DNA from: a virus
Lineage: Duplodnaviria; Heunggongvirae; Uroviricota; Caudoviricetes
DNA length: 64,000 bases
Reading direction: 5' to 3' (one strand)
Virus record (IMG/VR): IMGVR_UViG_3300022701_000176
The position numbers were made by a program, and so were the translations under genes. The stretch's first letter is position 1, and each line of letters begins with the position of its first letter. The notes beneath the pieces were generated by a model that was given only the letters and a program-made list of their open reading frames with translations, did no database searches and was not told the origin of the DNA. This document shows, piece by piece, positions 13,260 through 52,843 of the stretch.

Positions 13260-15230
13260 CTATTTCGTCAAAAGATTATAAATATCGTTTTCATCTCCAT
13301 CTCTGAACAAATCAAATGTATTATTCATTCCACCCTTCATATTCCCCATATTGGCCCTTATATAAGAATCCACTTTCTTTTTAAATGTATTAAACTCATT
13401 ATTCATATATTCATCCAATAATGGTGCACCAAACCCATTTAACCCACGTATCAGATCAGTTGCATCTTCAGTTGGTGAATTCATTTCATTATATGTGCTA
13501 TCAAAATTATCAAATGAATCTAATACATCCTTCCTATAATGCCTCACATAACATATAAAGCCCAAAGCCATTGCTAAATCGTCATGCAATCCAACATCAG
13601 CCTGTATCTTATTCCCTTTATCAACTAACCCACTTAATTCTAACGCTAATCTTTCTGATTTAACAATAGATGGATCTTCTATTATGTATTGATATAGAGA
13701 ATCGAGTATTAATGGTCTTGTTTTAACATTAGTAGATAGTCCTGGATAGAATTTCTTATGTCCTGTTTGTCCTCTCCACTCTCCATACATATTATACTCA
13801 TATGATTCATCTCGTAATATCTCTTCTATTACTTGATTGCCATAGCTGTTGTTTTCTATGATCAGGATGGAGCGTGGATACAGTTTAGCTATATATTTGA
13901 CTACAGTAGTAAAATCAAATACTGCCATTTTCCCTTTAAACTCAGCAATTTGTTTCATATCAACAAATCTAAACACTTCTATCGTACTCCAATCACCATC
14001 CCCCAATCCACTCCCCGTATCAACCCCAATTAATACTTTAGAATCTTTATCAGTATGAGTATATCTAATGAACTCACCACCCTGTTGCGTCCAGCCGCTC
14101 TCAAACCCTTCAGAATCGTTTTCAATGTTAACCCCTATCTTACCCCTTATCCAGCGTCTTTCAAGCGGTCTGACGTGTCTGGTGGTTTCTTGCAGCACTA
14201 CAATCACATCATCATCAAATAAATTATTACCAGATCCAACAAACTTCATCTCAAGTTCTTGATTTATCTTACGTTTATTATTCTGTAAGATTGCACACTG
14301 TTGATCATACCACTTTGGATCATTCTTGAATATCGGAATTTCAGACCAATGAATCTTATATGGTCTGAATGCAGAGAGAATAGCATCACCACCATCATCC
14401 ACATTGGTAGTCAATACTGCCGAATCGGTAGTCAATACTGCCGACTTAGACGATTTATCAGCTTCTTCATTTGTCCTTCCCTCCCCCTCCCCACTCTTAT
14501 CCTTTTTCCCACCTATTACATTAGAACTCTTAGATAAATTATTGTTACTATCCAACCACAGCTTGTAATACCACTTTCCTATTCCCTGCTGACCATTCGG
14601 AGTTGATAATACGATGGTTCCATAGGGAATTCCACGCTCTTTAGCCACTTGTTGGGCATATGATAGGGTTGAACCGAGTCCAGTCCACGCTTCATCGATT
14701 TTCATAATGTGTGCAGCTTCGTCAATTACTAGTAATCCGATAGATTTTGACCGAAAAACCGATCCTGGGTTAGACAAACTTACTGCTGTGGAGTGAAGTT
14801 GGCACCCATTTGTGGTACTAAAACTCTGAACGGACTTGTGTTTATACTGTGGTTTCAGATAGTTAGGGAGTTTGTCTACTATGTCTTCCACCTTCTTGCA
14901 AAAATCCGAGGATTCGGCGCCTGATCTACTCAGTACCCCGCTTACCAGGTTAGAATTAAAGGTACTGATATAAGCAATTATAAGTTGGCACAATGTACTA
15001 AAGCCGGTTTGTCTTGATTTGAGTAAAATCAAGTGATGATATTTAAAAAATGCACGAATGATTTCTTTTTGTGGTTCATAGAGTTTGGGTAATGTATCTC
15101 CACCAGCTAATGGTAGATAACAGCATTCTTCCATGAATTTAATTGGATTGTTTTTATATTCTAAATACTTAGTTGCATATTTTAATGCGCTTCTTGATAA
15201 TTTTTCAGTATTATCTTGTTGTATTTCCAT
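13260..15230 (-). CDS. terL: terminase large subunit
   Basis: ATPase signatures (LKSRQTGFSTL Walker A-like; LLVIDEAAHI Walker B) and a C-terminal nuclease-fold motif VLIGVDTGSGLGDGDWS. It carries an internal low-complexity S/K/E-rich insertion. Confidence 0.75.
   Translation of the reverse strand: MEIQQDNTEKLSRSALKYATKYLEYKNNPIKFMEECCYLPLAGGDTLPKLYEPQKEIIRAFFKYHHLILLKSRQTGFSTLCQLIIAYISTFNSNLVSGVLSRSGAESSDFCKKVEDIVDKLPNYLKPQYKHKSVQSFSTTNGCQLHSTAVSLSNPGSVFRSKSIGLLVIDEAAHIMKIDEAWTGLGSTLSYAQQVAKERGIPYGTIVLSTPNGQQGIGKWYYKLWLDSNNNLSKSSNVIGGKKDKSGEGEGRTNEEADKSSKSAVLTTDSAVLTTNVDDGGDAILSAFRPYKIHWSEIPIFKNDPKWYDQQCAILQNNKRKINQELEMKFVGSGNNLFDDDVIVVLQETTRHVRPLERRWIRGKIGVNIENDSEGFESGWTQQGGEFIRYTHTDKDSKVLIGVDTGSGLGDGDWSTIEVFRFVDMKQIAEFKGKMAVFDFTTVVKYIAKLYPRSILIIENNSYGNQVIEEILRDESYEYNMYGEWRGQTGHKKFYPGLSTNVKTRPLILDSLYQYIIEDPSIVKSERLALELSGLVDKGNKIQADVGLHDDLAMALGFICYVRHYRKDVLDSFDNFDSTYNEMNSPTEDATDLIRGLNGFGAPLLDEYMNNEFNTFKKKVDSYIRANMGNMKGGMNNTFDLFRDGDENDIYNLLTK
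14405..14443. repeat. in-frame tandem duplication (18-bp unit, 21-bp period) inside terL
   Basis: ggtagtcaatactgccga atc ggtagtcaatactgccga encodes SAVLTTD SAVLTTN in the terminase insertion. Confidence 0.8.
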
Positions 15231-32911: not shown

Positions 32912-35506
32912 TTAAGATTTAAGATCTTCTTCATAGATGCCATCTGGTTTATTGGTAGATACAAATACATCACCCAATATATCTTTAGCGGCATCGATGT
33001 CTATATTTGATAATGCTTTGCGTACAACGTCTACTATGCTATCACCACCAAGAATACCACGTAACGATACATGTTTCGCCATATCTGTAGCAACATGTCG
33101 ATTTGAAATTGCTTGTATCACACCCATAAGTTCTGGTGATAATGCGCCGACTTGTTTGACAGCAGCAGCAGTTGCAATATTTATCAATTTTTCTCTCAGT
33201 TCTTGACGTATTGCTTCGTTACTTATTGCTTCAGCATTATTCTCTTTGGTTCTACTCAGTTCATGTTGAAAGATCACATCTTTAACTTTTTCAAGTTCAA
33301 TTCTGAAATCTTCATGTGCTTTCTGTTCAGTCTGCTGTGATTGAATATTGTGCATATTTAATTTCAATCTATTTTCAGATATTACCAATTGTTGATCAGT
33401 TTCTATATCACTAATATTCTTAGTTAATTCAGACTGTTGATTTTTCAACTGTTCTAATTGAGTAAGTTTATCATTCTTTTCTGTAATGAGTTTTATTTCA
33501 AACTCATTTGAAATGATATCAGTATTTAAATCATCTAATTGTCCGATAAATGAGCTATCTTCGAATCTTACTTTATTTATTTGGATAGCTTTTATTTCCA
33601 TATTATTATCATCAAATTTATTTCTTGCATCAGTTATGATTAGATCATTTAATATAGTAGTATAATTATAATACATATCTTCTGATGATGTTTCTAATAC
33701 TTTATTCTTGATTAATGATCTCATTTGTTCACAGAGAAAGAGAGGATAATTTGGAATGGAAAACCATTTAATTGGATCATCTCCAGTAAAGTTTACATGA
33801 TATCTTAATCTTATATTTACAATTTGACCATCAGAAGTTATACATTCAAATATGTCAGATATAAAATTATTCTTAATTTGGAGATAAACATCATTAACAA
33901 TATTATGTTCAGTTTTACATTTGCCAGTTGAAAATGTCAATATTTCTGGTAATTCATCAAATTTGAGATTATATGGTTTGTTTCCAACTACAACATGTCT
34001 ATCCCCACTCTCAGAAGCGATACACATGGCGTAGTTTTCAAATACACGAATATGAGGTGCACCAGAGAATTTGGTATCATCGAGTGATATCTCTCTTGGT
34101 TTCGTATATTTGACTTTACGTCGAATGGTTCTACCAAGATGTTCATCTGATATACCACCCTTTGATACTCCTCTTGTTCTAACTGAATCAGCAGATAAAT
34201 ATTGATCTTCTGTTCCAAGTTTATAATTTTTAAGAACTTCTGTGAATGAATCTTCGGATACCATTCCAGTATGTTGGTCTTTCGAAGATTTCCATAATTT
34301 CCTATTATATTCTATTACTTCATCATTTCCGGGATACAACAATTTTGCAGTTTTGATCGGAAGTGCTCTTCTTACAAACACTTCTTCGATGGGATTAAGA
34401 AGAGTGAGTGGTTTTGATTCATTTCTTATGTGTCCAGTTATTCTATCCATTACATATCGTTCGTGTCCAGGCTGAATAACTGTACCAAAATGAATCGGTT
34501 CACTATTTTCACCATATCTTATTATCGATTCATTTATATTTGGGAAATATATTCTTTGATCTGTAATGAATCTTTCATCTCCCATTTTATATTCAATACC
34601 ATTTTCATCAGTATATGATTCATTTACTTTTACATGAATACCTGCAACTGGTGGCAGTTCAAGAGCTTTATGAATGATATTTCCATTCTTGTCTGTTTCA
34701 AACTCTTCAGTTGGTTCAGGGACTACAATTACACCATTTGCATTCCCTTTTATGATTCGTGTCTTACCTGATTCATCTCTCAACATTACACATTGTATAG
34801 CTTCAAGACTTACGGCATTTCTTATATATTTATCGATACCATCATTATCATTATTCTTATATTCTGGATTTATTAATACTTGGAATCCATCATATGGAAT
34901 AAAGAACGGGAAATCAGAACCAGTTACATTAAATTTAACACCATTTTCAATATGATTTTCAAGTTTAAATTCTTCGTCTGGAATATCACGTTGAATAACT
35001 TTTTTGATGAAATATTGAATATTTTCATCTTCATATTTCAACGCTTTCAATGCTTGATCACGATCATATACTTCTATGACCAAGTAATTGTCGGTTCTCT
35101 GCTTATGACCTCTGATTCTCGTTGCAGATTGTCCGGGCCACAGTGGTTTATCGAATGGTCCACGAATGACAATTTTTTTACCAACCATTAATTTCATGTC
35201 AGCCGATCTACATTGAACTGAGTCTTTTTCTGGAGGGAATTCATCGTTTTCTGATGGATTTAGAAGCACAATATAGTATCCATTTGGAGCAACTATATTT
35301 TTAGTCATTGCTTCTCTGATAGATGCTTTTCTAAAATTTGTTCCATCTCCTGCTTTAGGGTCATATATAACCGGCACTTGACTTTTTTCAATTGTAACCT
35401 TCTTATCGCCTACAGTCATAGTTATAACTGCTGTAGATACATCCAATATACATAATGAAGATCCAAGAGGAACGGGAACTTCGCTGTTTTTGTAATCATC
35501 ATTCAT
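32912..35506 (-). CDS. large virion structural protein candidate (function unknown; C-terminal coiled coil)
   Basis: 864-aa ORF with its own terminator and a C-terminal heptad-rich region. No catalytic motif was recognised. Confidence 0.3.
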   Translation of the reverse strand: MNDDYKNSEVPVPLGSSLCILDVSTAVITMTVGDKKVTIEKSQVPVIYDPKAGDGTNFRKASIREAMTKNIVAPNGYYIVLLNPSENDEFPPEKDSVQCRSADMKLMVGKKIVIRGPFDKPLWPGQSATRIRGHKQRTDNYLVIEVYDRDQALKALKYEDENIQYFIKKVIQRDIPDEEFKLENHIENGVKFNVTGSDFPFFIPYDGFQVLINPEYKNNDNDGIDKYIRNAVSLEAIQCVMLRDESGKTRIIKGNANGVIVVPEPTEEFETDKNGNIIHKALELPPVAGIHVKVNESYTDENGIEYKMGDERFITDQRIYFPNINESIIRYGENSEPIHFGTVIQPGHERYVMDRITGHIRNESKPLTLLNPIEEVFVRRALPIKTAKLLYPGNDEVIEYNRKLWKSSKDQHTGMVSEDSFTEVLKNYKLGTEDQYLSADSVRTRGVSKGGISDEHLGRTIRRKVKYTKPREISLDDTKFSGAPHIRVFENYAMCIASESGDRHVVVGNKPYNLKFDELPEILTFSTGKCKTEHNIVNDVYLQIKNNFISDIFECITSDGQIVNIRLRYHVNFTGDDPIKWFSIPNYPLFLCEQMRSLIKNKVLETSSEDMYYNYTTILNDLIITDARNKFDDNNMEIKAIQINKVRFEDSSFIGQLDDLNTDIISNEFEIKLITEKNDKLTQLEQLKNQQSELTKNISDIETDQQLVISENRLKLNMHNIQSQQTEQKAHEDFRIELEKVKDVIFQHELSRTKENNAEAISNEAIRQELREKLINIATAAAVKQVGALSPELMGVIQAISNRHVATDMAKHVSLRGILGGDSIVDVVRKALSNIDIDAAKDILGDVFVSTNKPDGIYEEDLKS

Positions 35507-38554: not shown

Positions 38555-39994
38555 TTATTTCTCCATTGATTTCGTTATATGGATGGTTTTCGTATCACAA
38601 TCGCCAAGAGTTACATCCTGTCCTCTAAACATACTCCGTTCCGTGATAACCCATGTCATTGGGTACTCTTCCGTCCAATCATAATTATGATAAATCGATT
38701 CAACATCAGATTCGTAATCAGTTAAAAACAATACAGAACTGATCTCAATTTCTTCTGCCAAATCCTCTATACGAGAAAATGGTGGATCATGAGACGTTCC
38801 CCCTCTACCAGTAAATCTTCTTACCTTATCGAACACATCATTTGGTGATGGATCATCGAATAATTCAAATTCATCTTTAACTTTATGATCATGAATTATG
38901 AAGTATAATGATCTGAAATGATTTGCAGAATCACATGATATTCCTAAAAATCGTTTTAAATCATCGTCTGATATCGATGCAGAACAATCGATAACAATGA
39001 TTAACGATCTAACATCATCACCATCTATATATGATGGCAGATATGTTATATTGATATAGGGATTACGAATGGTCCAATCGGGTTCTTCATTTGAAGCAGA
39101 TTGGTATACAAGAGCATTTCTCAAGATCTCATCCCAAGGCAATTTAATCTCAAACAAGTCGTTTAACAATAACACGATATTGGCGGTCATATCACCTTTA
39201 CTTATCATGTCAGAATTCCACAACGCTTTTGCTTGAGATGCCAAGTCTTTTAATATTTCATAAGGCGACTTACCATCACCACTATCGCCATCATCATTAT
39301 CATCATCTTCTCCAGATTCAGATTTTCCATCGATTGCTTTTGAATCATTTGCAATAATCTGGCTTTTTCCATTTTTGTCGGTAATTTTTATTACTTTATA
39401 TTTATTACCGTCTTGATCAGTTATCTCTTCCTCCTTTGCTTTATTTCCATTTCCTAAATCGACTTCATTCCCGCATTCGCCTTTACAACTCTCATCACCA
39501 CATTTACATTCGGCTTGATTAATCATCATATCATATAGTTCTTCAGCCGATATGCCGGAATCTTTACTATGAACATCTTCCAGAAAGAAATGGTTGTCTG
39601 GAAGTTGCATATATCTCATTTGTCTAACTTCTCGATTTGTCACATGATCAATTGCTAAAGCCCAAATCATTGGAATCTTTCCAACACTTCTTTCTATATG
39701 ATTTGAAATAATATGAATTATTTCATGGACAATGATAGCAATTATATTTGATCTGTTGAACTGATCGGTTGCACCGAATACTATTCGTTTCCCATCAGTG
39801 TAGGCTAATCCAGTTACACCAACTACTGCTCTGGTATACGCCTGTAATTCTTTCATATTCATAACAACTTTATCCATACTCATGGATAAAATACCAAAGA
39901 ATTTAAGAGAATTTTTATTCAGCAGTATAATATTCGCTTCTGAAACGAGTTTTTCAAACTCTTTTAATGGTATTGGTTTATATTCAGTTGTCAT
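38555..39994 (-). CDS. von Willebrand factor A (vWA)-domain protein with N-terminal HExxH metallopeptidase-like domain
   Basis: N-terminal IIAIIVHEIIHIISNH (HExxH). C-terminal metal-ion-dependent adhesion site (MIDAS) motifs IIVIDCSASIS (DxSxS), TGRGGTSHD and LFLTDYESD. It overlaps the upstream AAA+ gene by 4 nt. Confidence 0.6.
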   Translation of the reverse strand: MTTEYKPIPLKEFEKLVSEANIILLNKNSLKFFGILSMSMDKVVMNMKELQAYTRAVVGVTGLAYTDGKRIVFGATDQFNRSNIIAIIVHEIIHIISNHIERSVGKIPMIWALAIDHVTNREVRQMRYMQLPDNHFFLEDVHSKDSGISAEELYDMMINQAECKCGDESCKGECGNEVDLGNGNKAKEEEITDQDGNKYKVIKITDKNGKSQIIANDSKAIDGKSESGEDDDNDDGDSGDGKSPYEILKDLASQAKALWNSDMISKGDMTANIVLLLNDLFEIKLPWDEILRNALVYQSASNEEPDWTIRNPYINITYLPSYIDGDDVRSLIIVIDCSASISDDDLKRFLGISCDSANHFRSLYFIIHDHKVKDEFELFDDPSPNDVFDKVRRFTGRGGTSHDPPFSRIEDLAEEIEISSVLFLTDYESDVESIYHNYDWTEEYPMTWVITERSMFRGQDVTLGDCDTKTIHITKSMEK

Positions 39995-43489: not shown

Positions 43490-46489
43490 TTAATTTTTTA
43501 TTTTTAAACCAAGTATGTCTAAATATGCTTCTAATAATTTCATACTTTGTGGTCTGTCATCAAATGAATCATCAGATAAGCTTGGATTATTTAATATATC
43601 TTTTGTTAATAATTTATTCTTTAATCCCGGCGAATCACTCTGAACAGTTAACAAATCTCTTAAGAAATTTGTTCCACCATGAGCCAATAAAGCCCACGTT
43701 TCCATCTCACCAAATCTATGACCACCACTCCTTGATTTACCACCAAGTGGTTGAAGTGTCTTTTTACTATATGGTCCAATACTTCTTGCTGCCATTTTTT
43801 CAGATGATCGATGTATTAATTTAGTAAAGAATATATATCCAGATACGATAAATCTTTTTATATTCATTCCTGTTTCTGGATCAAATATTTCATATCTAAA
43901 TTCCGAATCAACAATAAACATTAAATTGAATAAATCATATATAGATATTGATTGGAATGGTGGTTGTATGAAATATAAGTTTTCTTCTGGATCATTGTTA
44001 TTATTATAATTTTCTATAAATTCAGATCTTATTTTATTTTTTATCCATTCATCATCTGTTTTATCAATTATATCAAGAACTTGATCCAAAAGTTCTAATT
44101 TATCATCTAAACCATCAATTTCTTTTAATTTCAATTTTAATTGATGAAGACATTCGCTCATGTGTAATTCATATAATTGACCAATATTCATTCTTGATAT
44201 AATACCAAGTGGATTTATAATAATATCTAAATTCCTTCCATCTGGTAATTTTGGCATTTTATTATCTGGAATTATTCTTGATATTATACCTTTGTTACCG
44301 TGTCTGTTTGCTACTTTATCACCTTCTCCTATTTGTTGTTCATATACTGCTTGCATTTTTACAAGTATCCCGCCAAATCGTTTTCCTTTGTGTGCATATT
44401 TCCCTTTTTGATTAACACAATCTAATCGAGATAGCCCATTTTTAGTTACAAATGCATTCACATCATCTTTATTGTCCATAAATCTCTCAAGCCGACTATA
44501 TAATTGAATATAATTATCAGTTTGAGTAATCATCATCCTTTCTATAAAATCATGAAATTCTTTTATTTGTTTATTCCAACTATTTGGATATATTTCAATA
44601 TCGGTTATCGTACAATCAACTGGAGCAGTTGGTTCAAATGGTTCAATATTTATTGATTCAAAACCATCTTCATCGTCAATAGTTTTAACTCTTGCATAAA
44701 TCTGACCCTTTTTAAGTTTATCACCAACTGAAAATAGTGGCATATATTCTTCATCGATTAAACTTAGGAGGACTTGTCCAGGTTCTATGCTAAAAGTAAG
44801 ATCAATACTATGTAATGAAGTGAATTTTTTTCTTGTTGATTCACTTATTACAATACCATCTTCATAGTTCCAACCTTTCCATATAGCTATACCTGTTAAT
44901 AAATTATGACCAAGTTTCAATTCACCATTATCAAGCGTTATAGATTCACATAAAATATCACCCTTTTTAAATTCTTCTCCAACTTTATAGTAACATTTTA
45001 TGTAATCAACGGTGTTTTGATACATGTTTCTATAATTTATATTTATAACTTCTGATGTTTTATCAACATACATTGCAATTACAAATTTATTATTGGCATG
45101 AACAATAGCACCATCATTTTTTGCAATATGGGTAAAAGTGGTATGCTCAATATTCATACTTTCTAAGCCACTTCGTATAAATGGTTTCTCAGAATCTTTT
45201 AATATTATTGATTGTTTCAATTGATTTGATGCCATTTGAAGTCGAATCTGGTCATCATTTTTAAGAAATGGAACAAGAGATATAGGGTAAGATGTTATAA
45301 CTTCTTGATCTGGAGTTCCAAATATTCCATTTTCTCCAATATCTATTGTTGGAATCATATTTAATATAACACCACAACCTTCCCGGTCTGGTGTATCTGC
45401 TGGACATACATATCCAAACTGACTATGATGAATATCTCTAAGATGGTTTGGAACATTTTCTTTCTTAAATCCACCTGGACCAGTTAGAGACAATTGACAC
45501 ATGGAAGCGATTTCTGTGACAGGATTTATTGGAAAGTTAAAATGAACAATACTACTCACATTACAACCATCCAATATAATATTTTTGTTTATCTTAAATT
45601 TCGTATTTTTTGGATCGTTGTTTATTGTTACAATCATATCATAAAATTTTTTGACCAATGGAAACAGTATATATTCTGATAATCTTATTCTTTTTCTTTT
45701 GAATGTTTTATCAGATTTAGAACCATCGTATATTCCCTGCAACAATTCGAATAGTATTGATTCAGTTTTCATTAATTTTTTGCTGAATATATCTATTTCA
45801 TATGCTGCTTTTAACGAAAATAAAACACTTTTCCCTTTTTTATATTTATCTATATTGGCAGAAGAGTATAATTTTCCTATATTTGTTGTTCTCTCCTTTT
45901 TGCTTATATCGTATAATTTTTTACACTCTACTATAAGATTATTTACATATTGATTATTTGGTCTTCCAGCTATAAACTCTTCAATTTCTTCTTTTGTATG
46001 AAATGTTGAAAGAAGAAGAGCAAGAGATATTTTTTTATTAAAAAGAGTTACTATATAATTCTCTCTATCTCTTATATTATTGAGATTAAGTTCTATATTT
46101 ATCGTATTTGTTCTTAATTTCAATAAACCATTTCGATATATAATTGGAAAATCGTATAATTGAAAGATTGGTATCTTCAGATATCCACCAATATAGAAAA
46201 AATGATTTTCTATGATATCAGGTATTTTAATATCATAATTAAGATCTTTTTTCTTTCGTGTATTTCCATTTTTTAAAGTAGCTCTAAGTATCGAATATAT
46301 ATTATATTTCAATTCTTCAAGACGCTTTGCATGAGAATTTATCCAATCACATTTCTCAAAAGTCCAGTTATTGATTAAAGATACATTTTCGAATATTTCA
46401 GTTATTAACCGTTTTATTCGATCTTTATCCCACTCGATACTTCTTCTAAAAAATATATCATTCTTCTTGTATCTTTTATCCATAATCAT
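43490..46489 (-). CDS. DNA-directed RNA polymerase beta subunit (divergent; C-terminal two-thirds clearly homologous)
   Basis: GPGGFKKENVPNHLRDIHHSQFGYVCPADTPDREGCGVILNM (beta region D), NRHGNKGIISRIIPDNKMPKLPDGRNLDIIINPLGIISRMNIGQLYELH, and GGKSRSGGHRFGEMETWALLAHGG. Confidence 0.8.
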   Translation of the reverse strand: MIMDKRYKKNDIFFRRSIEWDKDRIKRLITEIFENVSLINNWTFEKCDWINSHAKRLEELKYNIYSILRATLKNGNTRKKKDLNYDIKIPDIIENHFFYIGGYLKIPIFQLYDFPIIYRNGLLKLRTNTINIELNLNNIRDRENYIVTLFNKKISLALLLSTFHTKEEIEEFIAGRPNNQYVNNLIVECKKLYDISKKERTTNIGKLYSSANIDKYKKGKSVLFSLKAAYEIDIFSKKLMKTESILFELLQGIYDGSKSDKTFKRKRIRLSEYILFPLVKKFYDMIVTINNDPKNTKFKINKNIILDGCNVSSIVHFNFPINPVTEIASMCQLSLTGPGGFKKENVPNHLRDIHHSQFGYVCPADTPDREGCGVILNMIPTIDIGENGIFGTPDQEVITSYPISLVPFLKNDDQIRLQMASNQLKQSIILKDSEKPFIRSGLESMNIEHTTFTHIAKNDGAIVHANNKFVIAMYVDKTSEVININYRNMYQNTVDYIKCYYKVGEEFKKGDILCESITLDNGELKLGHNLLTGIAIWKGWNYEDGIVISESTRKKFTSLHSIDLTFSIEPGQVLLSLIDEEYMPLFSVGDKLKKGQIYARVKTIDDEDGFESINIEPFEPTAPVDCTITDIEIYPNSWNKQIKEFHDFIERMMITQTDNYIQLYSRLERFMDNKDDVNAFVTKNGLSRLDCVNQKGKYAHKGKRFGGILVKMQAVYEQQIGEGDKVANRHGNKGIISRIIPDNKMPKLPDGRNLDIIINPLGIISRMNIGQLYELHMSECLHQLKLKLKEIDGLDDKLELLDQVLDIIDKTDDEWIKNKIRSEFIENYNNNNDPEENLYFIQPPFQSISIYDLFNLMFIVDSEFRYEIFDPETGMNIKRFIVSGYIFFTKLIHRSSEKMAARSIGPYSKKTLQPLGGKSRSGGHRFGEMETWALLAHGGTNFLRDLLTVQSDSPGLKNKLLTKDILNNPSLSDDSFDDRPQSMKLLEAYLDILGLKIKN

Positions 46490-46765: not shown

Positions 46766-49700
46766 TTAATATTTAAATAATTCAGTCAGTGCTGATGAAT
46801 TATCAGATCTATTATTTATAAGACCTTCCAACAATTTAGCTTTCAAATTAGCAAACATAGCTCCAAGTAACCATGATGTTCGTGATGGTATCTGAAGAAT
46901 ACTCACGAATTCATAATCAACATCATTTCTGTTTGAAACTAATCTCCAAAGATCATTATCAACCCACATCATAGCAGATACAATTATTTCATAATGAACC
47001 ATATGTATATTTTTATATTCTCCGAATATACTATACATGAATTTGAGTAAATGTATTGGTTTACTTATATTCTCATCTCCATCTATTTGTTTTAATTTTG
47101 TTGGATTATGAAATAATTTATTTGCTATATTAATACCACTAATAATATCTTCATTGTGAGAACCACCATCATCTGAATCTTCATCACTTACTCTATTTAC
47201 AACACCGCTATTGTGAACAAATACACCAGAAGATACTGGAAAATTATGATATTCATTATCAACTTCTAAATCATAAAATTCTTCTTCTTTATCTAATTCT
47301 ATAAATTCTATATTATTAACTTTATGATTGTATCCGCATGGGATGTCATGGTTTGGATCGGGGATAGGAGCATAATCATTATATAATTTATTTCTAAGAT
47401 AATCTGGCGACCACTTGAGAAGATGTTCTCTATCATGTATTTTTCGACCATACATTTCTTTATTAATTTTATCAAATTGACTCAAACATAATCTAATATT
47501 GTTATCTTTCATATGTTGAAGTATTTTATCCATCATTGTTTCTGCAATACGTTGTTGTTTTGATCGATTATCTTCAACTCGATCATCAACAAGATGAGAC
47601 AGAAAATCTGGAGAATGTTTAAGAAGACCTTCTATCGTCTTCCTACTTAACGCTTTTGGATAAACAATTTCATTAGCTTTATCAAATGATGTATAAGTAA
47701 GAGGCATATCGAGTTCTTCCATCTTAGCAAGAACTTTTTTCATACGAGATTCACATTGAAGTTGTTGTCTCGATTTACCAGTTACTTTCCCTTTACTGTC
47801 ACTACTCACTATTCGTCTTTCACCACCAACTGGTTCGAGATGATTAAGATAATCTGGTGATAATTCTAACATCTTTTCTCTATGATGTGTTTTATCACCA
47901 TATATTTCTCTATTTGATTTATCAAAACTACCATATGTCATTGGAAGATTATTTTCTTCCATGTGTTTAAGAACTCTATCCATTCGTGATTCAGCATGAA
48001 GTTGTTGACGAGGTTTTTTAACTATATCATCAATAAATCCAATCATTAAATCTTCATGATCTTTTATTGCATATTTATATGTTGGATATCTTAATCCAGC
48101 AGATTTAAAATATTTTTCTCGAATCATATTAAAGTTCGTAGATGTTTTTTCTAACTTAAGATCAGATATTAATTTTAATATGTTTTCAATACATGTACGC
48201 CTTACTTTAATTGATATTTGTTTACTTTTTTCAGGATTATCAATGTGCCATTGTTTACGTGTTTCTGATGCTTTTATTCTTGCATCCTCTCCATGCATTT
48301 TTATATGTTCATCTGCATCTATTATTTGTATATTTGTAGGATAATCATTTTTAATATCATTATCGATATGATGTCTATGTATATTATTAGTTTTATTTAT
48401 TTTCTCACAATCTGAGTGGTCTGATGATAAATGGAATATTAAATCTCTCCTATAACCATTTGCTTTTGGTTCTTTATAATTTTGTTGAATTCTTCTTCTT
48501 CCCTCCATTCTACTACTAAGTGTACCATATTCTAATAGATAACAAGGCATTAAAGAATCCCATTTCTTTAAATCTTTTGCTTTCTTATATGTACCATTAC
48601 GCATCATCATTTCATGATCAGGTGTAACTTTTATTATTTTCTTATTGTCTAAAGTTATTTTTACCATCTTATTCGTTATATGATCTTTAAACACATTCAA
48701 TACTTTAGATACAACTATTTTTCCATCTGGTGAACATGAAAAAGTATAAATATCTTCACTATTAATATTTATACGTTCATATAATTCATCCATTCGTATA
48801 TGATTATTGTTTACATCTATTATACAAGTGTCGCGTGAAAGGCTTTCATGGAAGGTACGCAGTACAAGCTGCACGAGTCTCTCCCCGATTGAGTGAACAG
48901 CCATTATACCAATTTCATCGCTATGAAGTATTTTATGAAGATTACCATAACAAGTTTTACATATTTTTTCAGATTCACAATAAATTGGAGATCTTAGTTT
49001 TATATTTTTTCCAATTATATCATTTATGTTCGAAGTTCTAATTGGAATAACATTACCATTATCATCCACATAATTTCTCCAGAGTAGAACTCTTGCCATC
49101 TTTTTATCTCGTACATATATCTCCAAATAATCTTTAGTACAACAATCAATTTTATTGTGATCTATTTGATAATTAATACAACTGTATATTAATTGACGTG
49201 TTAAATATCCAGAATCACCAGTTGATAATGCTGTATCCAATAATCCCTTTCTTGCACCATAACACGATTCAAAAAATTCTTTCTGATTCAACCCTTCCAC
49301 CATACTACTTCGAATCAGATCTGGCCTAATATTTCCTTTTGAATCTGATACATAGCCCCTTGTGAATACAAGTTGCTTTGCTTGTTTCCATGAACCTCTC
49401 GCCCCCGACTTTATATACTGTGAGAATGGTAAACTATCTAATAATTCATGTACTTCTTCTGAATTTTCGATAATATTCATATCATCTACAATATTACCAG
49501 TTAATTCTTTATTCTTCTTCAATAATTCTTCTTTGAATATATCATCTAATCCAAGTGTATATCCTCGAATAGTTGACAATGAAAAACCAAGATTTTTAAT
49601 TTTATCCAGTGTTTTTATAACTTTAGATGGTGGATATGATAATACAATTTTATTTAATAAATTAAGTAATTTTCTCTTATCAATAACATCATCTATAATT

Positions 49701-50128
49701 GGATAATCTTCTGGTAAGCATTTATTAAATAATGCTCTCCCTCTTGATAATTGTACCCCTTTATATTCAACTAATTCAGTCAGCATATCATCAGTTGTTT
49801 CACCATTATTAATTTGAGTAGCACCATATATTCCAAGAATAATGTCTTGATTGGGGCGAGGTACAAGAGTAATATCTGTTTGAGATAATAAATTATTCCA
49901 TATTCCTATTCTTTCTTTCACATCATTTTTTGATTCTTCTGTAATTGGAAAGTATAATGCCATACAATCTTGTACATATACACCATCGTGAGTTGAAAAT
50001 GTAAAATAATCTTCAACAGTGAAATCATATCCAATTGTTTTAGATGGATCTTTTTTAATAGAGATAGAAGAAACAGGAATTAAATTATATTTTTCTTCCA
50101 ATTCTTTTTTTGATATTTTATTCGTCAT
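46766..50128 (-). CDS. RNA polymerase beta-prime C-terminal portion, carrying an Int-C-like N-terminus and a contiguous intein
   Basis: Extein motifs: CMALYFPITEES...LVPRPNQDIILGIYGAT (E. coli QMAVHVP...IIVPSQDVVLGLYYMT), GARKGLLDTALSTGDSGYLTRQLI, IGERLVQLVLRTFH (trigger loop), and C-terminal HYEIIVSAMM / SRTSWLLGAMFANLK. Confidence 0.8.
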   Translation of the reverse strand: MTNKISKKELEEKYNLIPVSSISIKKDPSKTIGYDFTVEDYFTFSTHDGVYVQDCMALYFPITEESKNDVKERIGIWNNLLSQTDITLVPRPNQDIILGIYGATQINNGETTDDMLTELVEYKGVQLSRGRALFNKCLPEDYPIIDDVIDKRKLLNLLNKIVLSYPPSKVIKTLDKIKNLGFSLSTIRGYTLGLDDIFKEELLKKNKELTGNIVDDMNIIENSEEVHELLDSLPFSQYIKSGARGSWKQAKQLVFTRGYVSDSKGNIRPDLIRSSMVEGLNQKEFFESCYGARKGLLDTALSTGDSGYLTRQLIYSCINYQIDHNKIDCCTKDYLEIYVRDKKMARVLLWRNYVDDNGNVIPIRTSNINDIIGKNIKLRSPIYCESEKICKTCYGNLHKILHSDEIGIMAVHSIGERLVQLVLRTFHESLSRDTCIIDVNNNHIRMDELYERININSEDIYTFSCSPDGKIVVSKVLNVFKDHITNKMVKITLDNKKIIKVTPDHEMMMRNGTYKKAKDLKKWDSLMPCYLLEYGTLSSRMEGRRRIQQNYKEPKANGYRRDLIFHLSSDHSDCEKINKTNNIHRHHIDNDIKNDYPTNIQIIDADEHIKMHGEDARIKASETRKQWHIDNPEKSKQISIKVRRTCIENILKLISDLKLEKTSTNFNMIREKYFKSAGLRYPTYKYAIKDHEDLMIGFIDDIVKKPRQQLHAESRMDRVLKHMEENNLPMTYGSFDKSNREIYGDKTHHREKMLELSPDYLNHLEPVGGERRIVSSDSKGKVTGKSRQQLQCESRMKKVLAKMEELDMPLTYTSFDKANEIVYPKALSRKTIEGLLKHSPDFLSHLVDDRVEDNRSKQQRIAETMMDKILQHMKDNNIRLCLSQFDKINKEMYGRKIHDREHLLKWSPDYLRNKLYNDYAPIPDPNHDIPCGYNHKVNNIEFIELDKEEEFYDLEVDNEYHNFPVSSGVFVHNSGVVNRVSDEDSDDGGSHNEDIISGINIANKLFHNPTKLKQIDGDENISKPIHLLKFMYSIFGEYKNIHMVHYEIIVSAMMWVDNDLWRLVSNRNDVDYEFVSILQIPSRTSWLLGAMFANLKAKLLEGLINNRSDNSSALTELFKY
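47210..48826 (-). mobile_element. intein (about 539 aa) with HNH endonuclease domain and three tandem ~58-aa repeats, inserted after RTFHESLSRDT
   Basis: Hint block A CIIDVNNNHIRM, block B VTPDHEMMM, and C-terminal block G SSGVFVHN followed by +1 Ser. Internal HRHHIDNDIKND...HIKMHGED (HNH-like). Three repeats: QQLHAESRMDRVLKHMEENNLPMTYGSFDKSNREIYG, QQLQCESRMKKVLAKMEELDMPLTYTSFDKANEIVYP, QQRIAETMMDKILQHMKDNNIRLCLSQFDKINKEMYG. Confidence 0.6.
49967..50128 (-). mobile_element. Int-C-like segment (C-terminal half of a split intein) at the N-terminus of the beta-prime C ORF
   Basis: 54 aa ending ...IGYDFTVEDYFTFSTHDGVYVQD (block F-like YDFTVED; block G-like GVYVQD with Gln-Asp in place of His-Asn), immediately followed by Cys+1 (CMALYFP). 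Confidence 0.45.
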
Positions 50129-50145
50129 TATAATTTTTTCCTTTT

Positions 50146-51258
50146 TTAAGCTGTTAATTTTTCTTTTTCTTCTACCAGTTTAAAATTATATTCATTTAAC
50201 TTTCGTTTTATATAATTTAAATTCTTATCTGAAACATCATGTAATGGATTTAATTTCCAACAATTTGTTTCATAATTTATTAATGATAAAGAACATATAT
50301 ATTTTTCATTTGTAATTATAACAAATGCATTATAACCATTATCTATTCCAGATTTTATCTCATATCTAATATTTCTATTCTTTTCAAAATGTAATAATTC
50401 AAAATGTTTTACTTCGATTAACCATTTTGAATTATTATTTTTAGAATCTGTTATCATGATATCTGGAAACCAATAATGATTAATTCCATTTTCATCATAA
50501 TAAGATAATCTTATTTTCGGTTGTGGAGTTATAATATGTGAACCATAATTTTTATATAGATAATTAAGAATAAATGTTTCTGATCCTTGTACATTTACTA
50601 TTTTGCCATCTGGTGTCTCATATTCATCACTATTTGATTCCGTTATCTTAGTACGAATATCTAAATCTTGACTTACATTTTCAACACCATACTTTTTATA
50701 AACACCATCTTTTTGAAGTTGTTTACCAGCTTCAGATTGCCACGGGTAATCTGTTCCCCAATTTTTTCTTGAAGTTTCAATCTTCTTTTGTTTAATATCT
50801 TCAAATTGAGAAATATTATCAACTCCATACTTCTTTTTTATCGTCTTTTTTGCAGTATCATGATAAGCTGATTTTAAAGATCCAAAATTCTTCTTAGCAG
50901 TTTTTTGCCGTTTAGCATTAACTTCTTTTAAACTCTGATAACATTTTTTATTACCACATGATATATTGAATCCTTCCGTAGCACTCTTAAATCCACATGG
51001 TTTACCACATTTACACATTGGAATATCATTTTCAGTATGAATATCATTCATTATACAATAAAGACGATAAGAGAAAGGTGCTCTTGGAACTTTTTTAGAC
51101 AATTTAAAAAATCGATCTAAATGTTTAGTTACTTCAGTTACTTCATTAAGAATAACTTTTGTTCGACTTAAACTTCTTATCATATTAGTTAAATCATTAT
51201 TAAATTTAGTTTCTAACTGATTTTCAAAATAATCTTTCAGTTCATTAAGAGTTCTCAT
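50146..51258 (-). CDS. free-standing endonuclease-like protein (zinc finger, YGV(E/D)N repeats, C-terminal PD-(D/E)xK motif)
   Basis: CKCGKPCG...CGNKKC; repeated KKYGVDNISQ / KKYGVENVSQ; YWFPDIMITD...WLIEVKHFE (PD...ExK). It lies exactly between the two beta-prime halves. Confidence 0.45.
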   Translation of the reverse strand: MRTLNELKDYFENQLETKFNNDLTNMIRSLSRTKVILNEVTEVTKHLDRFFKLSKKVPRAPFSYRLYCIMNDIHTENDIPMCKCGKPCGFKSATEGFNISCGNKKCYQSLKEVNAKRQKTAKKNFGSLKSAYHDTAKKTIKKKYGVDNISQFEDIKQKKIETSRKNWGTDYPWQSEAGKQLQKDGVYKKYGVENVSQDLDIRTKITESNSDEYETPDGKIVNVQGSETFILNYLYKNYGSHIITPQPKIRLSYYDENGINHYWFPDIMITDSKNNNSKWLIEVKHFELLHFEKNRNIRYEIKSGIDNGYNAFVIITNEKYICSLSLINYETNCWKLNPLHDVSDKNLNYIKRKLNEYNFKLVEEKEKLTA

Positions 51259-52843
51259 TATAATTTTCCTTTTGTTGAATCAAATATTTACCATATGGAT
51301 TTTCTAATAATTCTTTTGGTGATATTTTCTTTATTGATTCATCAACTTCATCATAAACAATTAATGAATGATCAGACGATGAATGAAATGGTTTGAATTG
51401 ATTGGAATCAGGATCACTTAATTCATACATTTCAATATTCTTATGAATAGAAAATTCAGTTATTTTCTTATATTCATTATTTCCAGTATCACAATCTATG
51501 GCTTTTATTTTAATATTATCAACTGGTTCATATTTTTCTACTGTGACTCCATCTGATCTGGTTTTGGTTTCTTTCAATTTCTTTGTATACTTCTTAAATT
51601 CTGATATGTGGAAAGTATCAAAATTCCCATCAGAAGTCAATACTTCAATATCTGCACTAACACTGTCGCCATCGAAATCTGCATTGTATGGAGGGCATAT
51701 CATTGGATGTATTCTAATAGTATGCCCAAGATGAACTTTGGCTTTAAATCCAAGAATACCAAGACGATGAAGAGTAGGTTGTCTATTAAGTATACATAGT
51801 TTATCAACCATAAATTCTTGAACATATCCATATAATTCATCACTATCATATTTCAAACAATCATCTATCCATTTAACTGCATCATTATATTTCTTTTTTG
51901 CTTTTCTATTTACAAGATATACTGTTAATTGAGGTTTAAGTATTTCAAGAATAACTTTATACGGAATACTACATTCATCCAAATTAAGATTTGGATCGGG
52001 TGATATAACAGCCCTTCCTGAAAAATCAACTCTTTTTCCAAGAATATTTGATCGTATTAATCCCTTCTTTTTACTCATTTTAGATAATACATAATCATAT
52101 AATTCAATTACGAGCAATTGAATATGTTTAAAATTAGTTTTATATATATCATCTGTTTCTGGAACTTTATATGGTAAAGAATTATATCTATTTATTTTAA
52201 CCAATAAATACGAATAAAAAGAATTAATTTCATCTATTATTCTTGTTCCATTTGCAGTTGTACTTCCACACGGTCTAAAATCCGGTGGAATTACAGTTAT
52301 CTCATCTATAGTTATATTATCAAAATTATCTCTGACATATTGAAATGATGTATCATATTTATCTATAAGATCTTTAACTATTTCAATTGCACCATTTAAT
52401 CCAACTAATTTTTTACTGGTGTCATCTATAGATTCATCAAATAATACAACATCACCATCTTCATTAAAAATATATTCTTTACTATATTTCAATGTATTTA
52501 ATATTATATCTTTATAGTTTGGTTTTATATATGTAATTATATAAAGAAATATTGGATTAAATATTTTGAATGGTATTTTTATTACACCGAATCTTCTCCT
52601 TCGTTCGTCAGATGATGTGATATCTACTCCACAAGATGGGCAGGTTTCTAAATCTAAATTTCTCCCTCTATAGCTTGATGATCGATTACAAGCACATTTG
52701 AAACTTCTTATTGGTCCAAATATTTGTTGGGAGAATAATCCGTCTTTTGAAAATTTTCCAGATTCAAAAATTTTGGGATTTAATATTCTGCTTATTTCTT
52801 CTTCTTCATTATTATCTCTTTGTTGTTTTAGCTCAAGTTTCAT
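51245..52843 (-). CDS. RNA polymerase beta-prime N-terminal portion (ends at catalytic NADFDGD plus Int-N-like tail)
   Basis: Zinc-binding CAC...CPSCG, FGVIKIPFKIFNPIF, NRQPTLHRLGILGFKAKV and ICPPYNADFDGD. Confidence 0.8.
   Translation of the reverse strand: MKLELKQQRDNNEEEEISRILNPKIFESGKFSKDGLFSQQIFGPIRSFKCACNRSSSYRGRNLDLETCPSCGVDITSSDERRRRFGVIKIPFKIFNPIFLYIITYIKPNYKDIILNTLKYSKEYIFNEDGDVVLFDESIDDTSKKLVGLNGAIEIVKDLIDKYDTSFQYVRDNFDNITIDEITVIPPDFRPCGSTTANGTRIIDEINSFYSYLLVKINRYNSLPYKVPETDDIYKTNFKHIQLLVIELYDYVLSKMSKKKGLIRSNILGKRVDFSGRAVISPDPNLNLDECSIPYKVILEILKPQLTVYLVNRKAKKKYNDAVKWIDDCLKYDSDELYGYVQEFMVDKLCILNRQPTLHRLGILGFKAKVHLGHTIRIHPMICPPYNADFDGDSVSADIEVLTSDGNFDTFHISEFKKYTKKLKETKTRSDGVTVEKYEPVDNIKIKAIDCDTGNNEYKKITEFSIHKNIEMYELSDPDSNQFKPFHSSSDHSLIVYDEVDESIKKISPKELLENPYGKYLIQQKENYNENS
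51248..51664 (-). mobile_element. Int-N-like segment (N-terminal half of a split intein) fused after NADFDGD
   Basis: 139 aa starting SVSADIEVLTSDG (block A-like with Ser1) and containing FHSSSDHSLIVYD (block B-like TxxH). Confidence 0.45.

Follow-up and report, generated by a model that had tools for sequence, protein, structure and literature searches.

How is the catalytic loop of a phage RNA polymerase completed when the gene for its beta-prime subunit is interrupted within that loop? The question arises from the window, the whole 64,000-nucleotide (64-kb) stretch of DNA analyzed here, whose large terminase gene identifies it as phage DNA. Genes for beta-prime N, an endonuclease, and beta-prime C lie co-oriented and tightly packed on its minus strand (Table 1). 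The N ORF reaches the NADFDGD motif (aa 387-393, DNA 51685..51665) and continues with a 139-aa tail, and the C ORF starts with 54 aa before beta-prime resumes at CMALYFP; the middle ORF shares 14 nt with the N ORF and stops 17 nt short of the C ORF. The preliminary description had reported these segments with their SSSDHSLIV, YDFTVED, and GVYVQD motifs, as well as a 370-aa middle protein with a zinc finger, YGV(E/D)N repeats, and a PD...ExK motif, and the sequences and coordinates are as it gave them. It had taken the segments for the two halves of a split intein on either side of a free-standing homing endonuclease. We consider it probable, at roughly 80%, that this is a fractured gene in which a class-1 intein, placed directly after the third Asp of NADFDGD, is made as two separately translated halves with the endonuclease gene between them, and the beta-prime active site is most likely joined after translation.

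Table 1 Features of the interrupted beta-prime locus (positions in the window)
Feature	Position	Strand	Details
N ORF	52843..51245	-	532 aa
Beta-prime N-extein	51665..52843	-	aa 1-393 of N ORF, NADFDGD at its end; Pfam RNA_pol_Rpb1_2 7e-29; PHROG RNA polymerase families
Predicted IntN, N-terminal split-intein half	51248..51664	-	139 aa; begins SVSADIEVLTSDG; contains SSSDHSLIV; stop codon 51247..51245
Direct repeat, left copy	51255..51271	-	AAGGAAAATTATAATGA; at endonuclease start (ribosome-binding site and ATG)
Middle ORF, free-standing homing-endonuclease gene	50146..51258	-	370 aa; Pfam DUF7487; PHROG homing endonuclease
Direct repeat, right copy	50125..50143	-	AAGGAAAAAATTATAATGA; at IntC start
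C ORF	50128..46766	-	1120 aa
Predicted IntC, C-terminal split-intein half	49967..50128	-	54 aa; precedes CMALYFP; own ATG and AAGGA ribosome-binding site
Beta-prime C-extein, first part	48827..49966	-	aa 55-434 of C ORF, from Cys+1 in CMALYFP; Pfam Rpb1 domains 3, 4, 5
Second intein, contiguous	47210..48826	-	539 aa (C ORF aa 435-973); Cys1 ... His-Asn, then Ser+1; Pfam Intein_splicing 73.1 bits vs cut-off 35.8
Beta-prime C-extein, last part	46766..47209	-	aa 974-1120 and stop; ORF continues past VHN-SGVVN
RNA polymerase beta subunit gene	43490..46489	-	999 aa; directly downstream of beta-prime C; Pfam Rpb2 domains 3, 6, 7

The two segments are not chance extensions, since every tblastn match of the N ORF to phage beta-prime genes stops at query aa 396-403 and intein-free genes carry no insert at this point. 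Among the fetched loci, 150 beta-prime genes have no intein, and in these the residue immediately after DFDGD is Q (68), E (48), T (about 22), A (11), or K (1), with M-x-x-(Y/H/F)-x-P coming next. The first part of the C-extein aligns with these phage genes and with E. coli NADFDGD-Q-MAVHVP, in agreement with the earlier remark that Cys replaces the Gln at the junction. The pattern of the direct repeat at the endonuclease and IntC starts occurs twice in the whole 64 kb, against a chance expectation of 0.01.

The key intein positions can be placed in both halves: Ser1, an invariant His74, and block B (S96-x-D98-H99-S100) in IntN, and block F (YDFTVED, with Asp173 in the numbering of the joined halves) and block G (GVYVQD, terminal residue Asp) in IntC, which has Gln in place of the penultimate His. 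IntN has six homologues at 46-53% identity and matched none of the curated sequence models in Pfam and NCBIfam; the best curated model for IntC was Pfam PT-HINT, which at E 0.006 did not reach threshold, and a PDB sequence search found nothing. When the halves were joined and modeled by AlphaFold2 with a 49-sequence alignment, a Hint domain was predicted at pLDDT 95.3 and pTM 0.89, weak only at residues 131-150, the artificial join, and with most of the fold supplied by IntN; a single-sequence prediction, at a pLDDT of 35, was uninformative. All 33 Foldseek matches in the PDB with E <= 0.001 were inteins, bacterial intein-like or BIL domains of the Hint superfamily, the best being 7oec, 9hth (the fused Aes123 PolB1 split intein), and 5o9i (the TFIIB mini-intein), with target-normalized TM scores of 0.72-0.75. 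The Hint fold on which the earlier reading depended is thus predicted with high confidence and matches solved inteins. Because the prediction used one fused chain and an alignment that includes contiguous relatives, the model depicts the fold of the family and not the meeting of two separate polypeptides.

Relatives at the same site connect the halves to recognizable inteins. Three beta-prime genes (L008, L026, L158) carry contiguous insertions of 456-517 aa at the identical position, reading DFDGD-S...VWD-T; that of L158 passes the Pfam cut-off for Intein_splicing (36.8 vs 35.8 bits), and those of L008 and L026 pass the cut-off for LAGLIDADG_3. In hhalign comparisons restricted to intein residues, the N halves matched these contiguous inteins with a probability of 94% (E 1.4e-7) and IntC matched their C-termini with a probability of 95% (E 2.5e-8), in an alignment that ends exactly at the terminal Asp. 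An exhaustive search with the IntN profile returned 126 protein clusters at E <= 1e-3, 88 of them at E <= 1e-10, and every match spanning the junction reads DFDGD followed by S, C, or T. The halves are members of a family of inteins, at least 126 clusters in size, whose position in beta-prime is always this one. Pfam Intein_splicing was matched by 9 of 49 family members tested singly (best E 3e-9). Contiguous relatives, which must splice, include P0073, a full-length beta-prime of 1146 aa that contains a mini-intein of 175 aa, and P0075, which pairs Ser1 with Cys+1 as the window's intein does.

Junction residues were tabulated for 129 family proteins, comprising the six first homologues and those from the exhaustive search. 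Residue 1 is S in 42, C in 8, T in 7, and A in 1; the last intein residue is Asp in 69/69, and the 69 residues at +1 are T (58), S (10), and C (1). Most members combine Ser1 with Thr or Ser at +1 and are therefore cysteine-less, and the Ser1 and Cys+1 pairing of the window is rare, shared by 1/69 other members. Block B follows the consensus (S/T)xDHS(L/M), and no member has His at the penultimate position. At least seven further metagenomic contigs, all independent, have the same arrangement of genes, with extein identities of 31-53%; between the window and its relatives, identity is 47-49% for IntN and 53-66% for IntC, against 31-34% for the flanking extein. Taken with the predicted fold, these sequence data strongly support a split-intein reading of the two segments.

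The gene between predicted IntN and IntC occupies the loop where intein endonucleases are canonically inserted. Its product matches Pfam DUF7487 (68.4 bits, cut-off 27) and two PHROG 'homing endonuclease' families (phrog_3339 at 8e-10, phrog_12131 at 5e-6), with Tn7_TnsA-like_N at E 5e-5 and 24.2 bits, under the cut-off of 26.5. It has a zinc-finger-like cluster of four Cys (CKCGKPCGF...CGNKKC), invariant among the five endonucleases compared, KYGVxN repeats (KKYGVDNISQ, KKYGVENVSQ), and a C-terminal PD-ExK-type, TnsA-like nuclease region (YWFPD...IEVK). DUF7487 genes occupy the equivalent position in L001, L086, and an ENA contig. The PD-ExK-type enzyme is intact in the window, L001, and L168, and L086 has a Vsr-like nuclease module. 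In L004 the endonuclease is truncated to zinc fingers and repeats beside intact intein halves, and in L085, L005, and L165 it is absent and the intact halves lie 12-160 nt apart with their own ribosome-binding sites, so the halves are kept irrespective of the endonuclease's fate. The fold, the homology to same-site inteins, the conserved catalytic positions, and the homing-endonuclease families together support the architecture originally proposed.

According to this reading, the locus would yield beta-prime(1-393)-IntN, the endonuclease, and IntC-beta-prime C, and IntN and IntC would associate into one Hint domain. Ser1 would undergo an N-to-O acyl shift at the Asp393-Ser1 bond, Cys+1 would take over the N-extein by transesterification, the C-terminal Asp, in place of the usual Asn, would cyclize and release the intein, and an S-to-N shift would leave a normal peptide bond in the product NADFDGD-CMALYFP. 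A C-terminal Asp is described in PMC4031507, citing Amitai et al. 2004, as an accepted variant of step 3, and a missing penultimate His with a terminal Asp slows that step in some inteins (PMC4031507). The endonuclease would be a selfish passenger, presumably cutting the cassette-less alleles of co-infecting phages, into which the cassette would be copied during repair.

Given these results, could the two beta-prime pieces remain separate? It is unlikely that the halves are intein-derived but non-splicing and serve only as non-covalent docking domains holding the pieces together in the polymerase. The NrdA of Aeromonas phage Aeh1, split by a homing endonuclease, does assemble without ligation (PMC3045599), multisubunit phage RNA polymerases tolerate split beta-prime subunits (PMC7598289), beta-prime in L001 and L004 is also cut elsewhere with no Hint signature, and the unusual Gln-Asp ending might be a sign of decay. 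However, every residue that serves the chemistry and not docking is kept family-wide: Ser1, the His of block B, the Asp of block F, the C-terminal Asp, and the nucleophile at +1. Each is the same in type as in contiguous members, which cannot work unspliced, and a domain of ~190 aa on the third Mg-binding Asp would, judging from RNA polymerase structure, occupy the active center. The alternative offered in the preliminary description, a beta-prime divided into two subunits with lineage-specific extensions unrelated to inteins, is the least probable reading. The missing at-threshold Pfam and NCBIfam calls on the window's segments would suit it, but it fits neither the high-confidence Hint fold matching solved inteins, nor the profile-profile homology to Pfam-confirmed inteins, nor the motifs and conserved junction nucleophiles found family-wide; as far as computation can, the fold and homology tests refute it.

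Joining at the RNA level is very improbable. Group I introns with endonuclease ORFs are frequent in phage genes, including RNA polymerase genes of AR9-like and Staphylococcus jumbo phages (PMC12880540), and a self-splicing intron holding the endonuclease gene would bring the coding regions of IntN and IntC back together as a contiguous intein, followed by cis-splicing. Yet an Rfam scan of 49500-52200 found no family, intron or other, at E <= 1; the endonuclease ORF fills the gap and leaves no room for an intron core; the IntN frame closes with a stop and IntC has its own translation start; and relatives carry the same two genes separated by very little DNA. We give equally little credence to a decaying, non-functional beta-prime gene broken by a mobile endonuclease in a phage that uses another polymerase. 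The window, which is part of the genome, holds just one beta-prime/beta set, but all ORFs are intact, an intact beta gene adjoins, the arrangement recurs in the divergent contigs described above, and the intein halves are more conserved than the extein.

Fractured genes were described by Dassa, London, Stoddard, and Pietrokovski (2009, Nucleic Acids Res; PMC2677866), and the architecture here is identical, with an enzyme gene broken by split-intein halves and a same-strand free-standing endonuclease gene between them. Both sets are mainly phage or metagenomic and broken at the canonical endonuclease-insertion loop, and the relatives lacking the endonuclease or the split that their evolutionary model involves are seen here too. 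Their eight host types are enzymes of DNA synthesis, repair, and packaging (gp41 helicase, IMPDH, DnaE, NrdA, NrdJ, ligase, terminase, and others), and the paper nowhere uses the term 'RNA polymerase'. Its endonucleases are GIY-YIG or Vsr-like, whereas that of the window is DUF7487 with a TnsA-like PD-ExK region, and the window's intein differs from theirs in ending in Asp. We found no literature report of a fractured-gene layout for RNA polymerase beta-prime or at the NADFDGD site; the host enzyme, insertion site, and endonuclease family seem not to have been reported, the layout itself being already known.

Among characterized split inteins, Aes123 PolB1, gp41-1, and NrdJ-1 (PDB 9hth, 8ubs; PMC11923092) have the Hint fold split at the same loop, and Aes123 PolB1, the second-best structural match, shares Ser1 with the window's intein (PMC11923092). 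They reside in other host proteins, show no sequence relationship at the sensitivity of phmmer or hmmsearch, and end in Asn, the terminal residue being mutated N-to-A in the solved 9hth, 8cpo, and 6zgq constructs. The C-terminal Asp or Gln inteins of Amitai, Dassa, and Pietrokovski (2004), as summarized in PMC4031507, likewise lack a terminal Asn and perform step 3 by Asp or Gln cyclization; they are presented there as sporadic variants, whereas Asp is universal in the window's family. The archaeal rPol A' and rPol A'' inteins (Mja, Nph; InBase, as cited in PMC1635734) also lie in the beta-prime homologue, the largest polymerase subunit, but are described there as contiguous and archaeal, unlike the split phage intein; the fetched loci include 48 DFDGDE genes of archaeal/eukaryotic type, and none has an insertion at the NADFDGD site. 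A related intein in L168 is split after 12 residues, giving an IntN about as short as the 15 aa of the atypically split PolB16 OarG (PMC10189870); in the window itself the break lies at the canonical position and residue +1 is Cys. The family His74, upstream of block B, may be the counterpart of the 'NX' histidine in Ser1 inteins (PMC10189870), although that His is preceded by Arg or Lys and His74 by Ile, Lys, or Val.

The C ORF also contains a second, contiguous intein, absent from the preliminary description, inserted after RTFHESLSRDT. It includes an HNH-like insert (PHROG HNH endonuclease, 4e-4) and three internal repeats. Lying 380 residues downstream of the first junction, it too would have to splice, in cis, so that mature beta-prime would need two splicing events.

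The preliminary description of this locus was accurate in every detail when the ORFs were re-read: an N-terminal beta-prime ORF with a 139-aa tail, a middle ORF, and a C-terminal beta-prime ORF in which a 54-aa segment precedes CMALYFP. The tail (IntN, the N-terminal half of the proposed split intein) begins SVSADIEVLTSDG and includes SSSDHSLIV. By Pfam, the N ORF contains Rpb1 domain 2, the C ORF contains Rpb1 domains 3-5, and the beta subunit gene has Rpb2 domains. The IntN frame closes with its own stop codon at 51247..51245, and the 54-aa C-terminal half, IntC, starts from its own ATG at 50128 with AAGGA 10 nt upstream; the halves are therefore carried by separate genes with their own stop and start, as is characteristic of a naturally split intein. 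A large terminase (13260-15230), along with several further phage families, identifies the window as phage DNA. No match was obtained for the region by megablast against annotated phages or for a single protein in a scan of viral contigs, indicating that neither set contains a sequenced close relative of the source phage. A promoter scan gave fewer promoter-like sites than shuffled sequences, and a terminator scan gave none between the genes.

Features of the beta-prime locus and their positions in the window
Feature	Position	Strand	Description
Beta-prime N ORF	52843..51245	-	532 aa; NADFDGD at aa 387-393; 139-aa tail
Middle ORF	51258..50146	-	370 aa; 14-nt overlap with N ORF; stop 17 nt ahead of C ORF
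Beta-prime C ORF	50128..46766	-	1120 aa; first 54 aa with YDFTVED, end GVYVQD, then CMALYFP
Second contiguous intein	47210-48826	-	539 aa; C ORF aa 435-973; Pfam 73 bits
Beta subunit gene	46489..43490	-	after beta-prime C ORF
Direct repeat copies	51255-51271 and 50125-50143	-	starts of endonuclease gene and IntC gene

In tblastn searches the N ORF matched 66 phage records, always with the match ending at query aa 396-403. Of 162 fetched loci with a DFDGD motif, 150 are insertion-free, and in these beta-prime genes DFDGD is followed by Q (68 genes), E (48), T (about 22), A (11) or K (1) and continues unbroken into M-x-x-(Y/H/F)-x-P. Compared with these genes, the two window segments form an insertion, in frame and at a conserved host site, which the homologues lack. 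Intein-free genes differ in the residue that follows DFDGD, so a Cys at this position in the mature beta-prime is probably tolerated.

Pfam and NCBIfam gave no match for IntN, and for IntC or the joined halves the only match was a sub-threshold one to PT-HINT in Pfam (E 0.006-0.013). PDB sequence searches, run with the joined halves and with a five-sequence profile, were empty, and the AlphaFold model predicted from the joined sequence by itself was uninformative, with a pLDDT of 35. As these approaches were insufficient, the case rests on the relatives of the element. With a 49-sequence alignment built from database proteins as input, AlphaFold2 modelled the joined halves of the window with a pLDDT of 95.3 and a pTM of 0.89, the model softening only at residues 131-150, where the halves are artificially joined across the split. 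Foldseek returned 33 PDB matches at E ≤ 0.001, every one an intein or a Hint relative, the best being 7oec, 9hth (fused Aes123 PolB1 split intein) and 5o9i (TFIIB mini-intein), with target-normalised TM scores of 0.72-0.75. A Hint fold of the combined segments, whose absence would have counted against the earlier proposal, is thus predicted. Pfam Intein_splicing is matched at E ≤ 0.01 by 9 of the 49 family members.

Searching with the 139-aa tail recovered six proteins (46-53% identity), and Rpb1 domain 2 is also present in four of them. The layouts were read from the contigs of these proteins and from loci recovered with an alignment; L001 derives from SRR29243423. In two metagenomic loci (L001 and L086) and an ENA contig, a beta-prime fragment with IntN is followed by a DUF7487 gene and then by IntC with the remainder of beta-prime. 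The middle ORF of L004 retains zinc-finger and repeat modules only, the endonuclease being truncated, and L085, L005 and L165 are without a middle gene, their halves lying 12-160 nt apart and each C gene having its own Shine-Dalgarno-like sequence. The halves have survived intact in loci whose endonuclease is degraded or missing, which indicates that selection acts on them independently of the endonuclease. All of these window-like relatives have S, C or T directly after DFDGD, and their IntC terminates in (V/I)QD, with T or C as the next residue. The same site also carries contiguous inteins: three further loci (L008, L026 and L158) have uninterrupted insertions of 456-517 aa, of the form DFDGD/S...VWD/T, in giant fused beta/beta-prime ORFs. 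That of L158 scores 36.8 bits against the Intein_splicing cut-off of 35.8 bits, and those of L008 and L026 are above the LAGLIDADG_3 cut-off, with Intein_splicing matches at 1e-5 to 1e-6. Profile-profile comparisons confined to intein residues matched the split N halves to the contiguous inteins (94% probability, E 1.4e-7) and the split C halves to the contiguous C-termini (95% probability, E 2.5e-8), with the latter alignment ending at the terminal Asp in both. Fold, same-site contiguous homologues and family-wide conservation together support the split-intein interpretation of the two extra segments, and we put the probability that the element is, in descent and fold, a true split intein at about 0.95.

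The ORFs of L008, L026 and L158 represent a very different phage background for the same DFDGD intein allele. They are single ORFs of 1900 to over 3000 aa fusing beta and beta-prime, contain up to two LAGLIDADG inteins each (the second one of L008 is in the beta part), and are adjoined by phage baseplate-like genes; L008 and L026 are GC-rich.

An exhaustive HMMER search with an IntN-only profile over 1.84 billion cluster representatives identified 126 proteins at E ≤ 1e-3, 88 of them at E ≤ 1e-10. Twenty-six representatives stop just past IntN as in the window (a count made without individual checks for contig truncation), 28 are contiguous with an insert of 300-360 aa, and four are contiguous mini-inteins, such as P0073, a full-length beta-prime of 1146 aa. 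A further 37 start inside IntN and continue through IntC into beta-prime C, an arrangement explained by locus L168 (5300-8500), in which the beta-prime N gene ends with DFDGD, the 12-residue IntN SLIGKVRLRIME and a stop codon, followed by an endonuclease gene, two small genes and finally beta-prime C with the remainder of the intein fused to it. This split class also includes P0028-P0093, L167 and L169; the upstream genes of L167 and L169 are unrelated, so the partner gene may lie elsewhere in those genomes. Among the genomes of 185,579 cellular species the family was found in only two MAG contigs, so it is essentially phage-confined, and the possibility of a cellular rpoC intein was rejected.

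Every stage of the proposed evolutionary cycle is present in this DFDGD intein family, from unsplit forms (contiguous with LAGLIDADG, contiguous mini-intein) to split forms in which the endonuclease gene is present, decayed or absent and a form with a second split point after 12 residues, which makes it a good natural series for testing the origin of split inteins. Identities between the window and L085, L086 or L165 are 47-49% for IntN and 53-66% for IntC compared to 31-34% for the adjacent extein, while in the closely related pair L085/L165 the extein is 52-53% identical and IntN just 42%. The intein is therefore well maintained and does not co-diverge with its host gene, a pattern that would be expected of a mobile element needing to keep working.

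At the window junctions the nucleophiles are Ser at intein position 1 and Cys at C-extein +1. Across the family, position 1 (the residue after DFDGD, by scripted classification) is S in 42 members, C in 8, T in 7 and A in 1, and the +1 residue is T in 58, S in 10 and C in 1. The last intein residue is Asp in 69 of 69, preceded by Q (45), Y (15), F (4), W (2), M (2) or N (1) and never by His. The block B consensus is (S/T)xDHS(L/M), represented in the window by S96-S-D98-H99-S100, and block F is Y-D173-F-T-V (numbering along the joined halves); D98, H99 and S100 are conserved in at least 90% of the family, and D173 is invariant among members including IntC. The one residue that never varies across the 49-sequence alignment is His74, possibly the counterpart of the NX-motif histidine that has been described as specific to Ser1 inteins (PMC10189870). 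The window intein ends Gln-Asp and lacks the block G His-Asn consensus at its C-terminus, a departure from consensus and not an exclusion from inteins, because a C-terminal Asp is a documented functional variant (PMC4031507). With Ser1 combined with Thr or Ser at +1, most members are cysteine-less; split inteins of this kind are scarce and sought after in protein engineering (PMC11923092, PMC10189870), and the natural 12-residue IntN would suit semi-synthesis.

We consider it likely that the window split intein actively trans-splices, and the steps most likely follow the established class-1 intein pathway (PMC4031507). The two precursors would associate via IntN and IntC, Ser1 would form an ester with Asp393, Cys+1 would take over the N-extein, the terminal Asp would cyclise, and an S-to-N shift would yield NADFDGD-C-MALYFP. 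The second, contiguous intein in the C ORF would also have to splice in cis, so that mature beta-prime would need two splicing events. Association of the halves as a non-covalent docking device without splicing has a precedent (PMC3045599), but we judge it quite improbable here, as it leaves unexplained both the universal retention of residues that serve only the chemistry and how a 190-aa domain could hang from the third catalytic Asp. The alternative entertained in the preliminary description, a plain division of beta-prime into subunits without a functional intein, is contradicted by the fold, homology and conservation of the segments, as is a pseudogene. It is also unlikely that the endonuclease sits within a self-splicing intron joining the IntN and IntC coding regions, since no Rfam match was found at E ≤ 1, the endonuclease ORF fills the gap between the two genes, and these genes nearly abut in relatives; the empty Rfam search and the gene packing led us to discard an intron.

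It is conceivable that transcription by the phage RNAP is gated by trans-splicing in the Mg-binding loop of the active site and that this phage lineage uses the step as a control point, with the family possibly forming a mechanistically distinct subclass, a proposal that we consider speculative and rather unlikely. If true, RNAP activity could be delayed until both precursors accumulate, or could respond to conditions affecting the Ser1/Cys+1 ester chemistry. Traits of such a subclass would be the universal C-terminal Asp, the absence of a penultimate His, the invariant His74, and natural breaks at two points, after ~12 aa or at the canonical loop.

The layout of split-intein halves flanking a free-standing endonuclease, as originally proposed, is found in the window and also in L001, L086, the ENA contig and L168, and is the one that Dassa et al. 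2009 (PMC2677866) described for fractured genes. The middle ORF matches Pfam DUF7487 (PF24308) at 68.4 bits against a gathering cut-off of 27, as well as two PHROG families annotated as homing endonucleases. These matches and an alignment of five endonucleases, which share a module with four invariant Cys and KYGVxN repeats, support the zinc finger, YGV(E/D)N repeats and candidate PD...ExK motif described for the 370-aa protein, whose nuclease activity and target are inferred. The nuclease modules are exchangeable across the five: the window, L001-HE1 and L168 enzymes have YW-FPD...E-x-K, with FPD...IEVK conserved, while the L086 endonuclease and L001-HE2 have the Vsr-like NG..WHSE...IFEDEW, the former with a weak Vsr match (E 0.017). 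Endonucleases of described fractured genes are GIY-YIG or Vsr-like (PMC2677866). Unlike the Vsr-like homing endonucleases (Dassa 2009; I-Bth0305I), the window enzyme gave no match to a Vsr-type catalytic core; its C-terminal region is possibly TnsA-like, with a match to Tn7_TnsA-like_N at E 5e-5 and 24.2 bits, 2.3 under the cut-off of 26.5.

A direct repeat, AAGGAAAA[AA]TTATAATGA, occurs only twice in the 64 kb (0.01 expected by chance) and brackets the endonuclease cassette, carrying a ribosome-binding site and ATG. It may be a scar left when the endonuclease entered an intein that was split beforehand. The repeat is confined to the window and is not in L001, L086, L004 or L168, and was rejected as a general feature.

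The second intein lies after RTFHESLSRDT in the trigger-loop region, has Cys1 and a terminal His-Asn followed by Ser+1, and contains an HNH-like segment and three internal repeats of ~65 aa (SRMDRVLKHMEENNLPMTYGSFDK...). A second fractured site is present in L001 (13170-16540), ~9 residues upstream of the position of this intein, where beta-prime fragment 3 ends ...SERIMK followed by CSNGLIETKDMLKTFDDIWENTEWV and a stop codon, a 25-aa IntN; a 610-aa DUF7487 and Vsr-like endonuclease gene follows, and fragment 4 carries the rest of the intein, ending ...VQNHN before SFHLGGA. Beta-prime N is cut once more, into ~310 and ~90 aa of extein, in L001 (7754-10687), L004 (7014-9947) and the ENA contig of cluster representative P0005, with unrelated genes (DNA ligase, NUDIX, a 283-aa ORF) or a DUF7487 gene between the pieces. 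No Hint signature is visible at this extra break, which therefore looks like a plain intein-less gene split.

Among multisubunit RNA polymerases no motif is more conserved than NADFDGD, and with trans-splicing the active-site loop of the RNAP itself would be a product of protein ligation. Fractured genes have been described for eight host types, RNA polymerase not among them (PMC2677866); these are DNA-metabolism and packaging enzymes, and the window case extends them to the transcription machinery. Archaea are known to have inteins in the largest subunit of RNAP (rPol A', A''), and these are contiguous (PMC1635734). Full-text literature searches gave no paper combining 'intein' with 'NADFDGD' and no mention of DUF7487, and the published jumbo-phage, crAss-like-phage and Jug-phage intein accounts examined do not describe the beta-prime DFDGD site. 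A split intein at this site is thus provisionally unreported, coverage of the literature being incomplete. Where a beta-prime gene of an uncultured phage seems to break off at DFDGD, this intein should be looked for.

Two other genes on the minus strand of the window carry unusual annotations. An 864-aa ORF (32912-35506) matches Pfam MVP_shoulder, the major vault protein shoulder, above the cut-off (E 2.5e-10), a domain unexpected in a phage. A 479-aa ORF (38555-39994) matches the PHROG 'HNH endonuclease' family phrog_1314 (8e-41), while Pfam assigns it DUF2201_N (putative metallopeptidase) and the VWA-like DUF2201, and the HNH label looks misleading.
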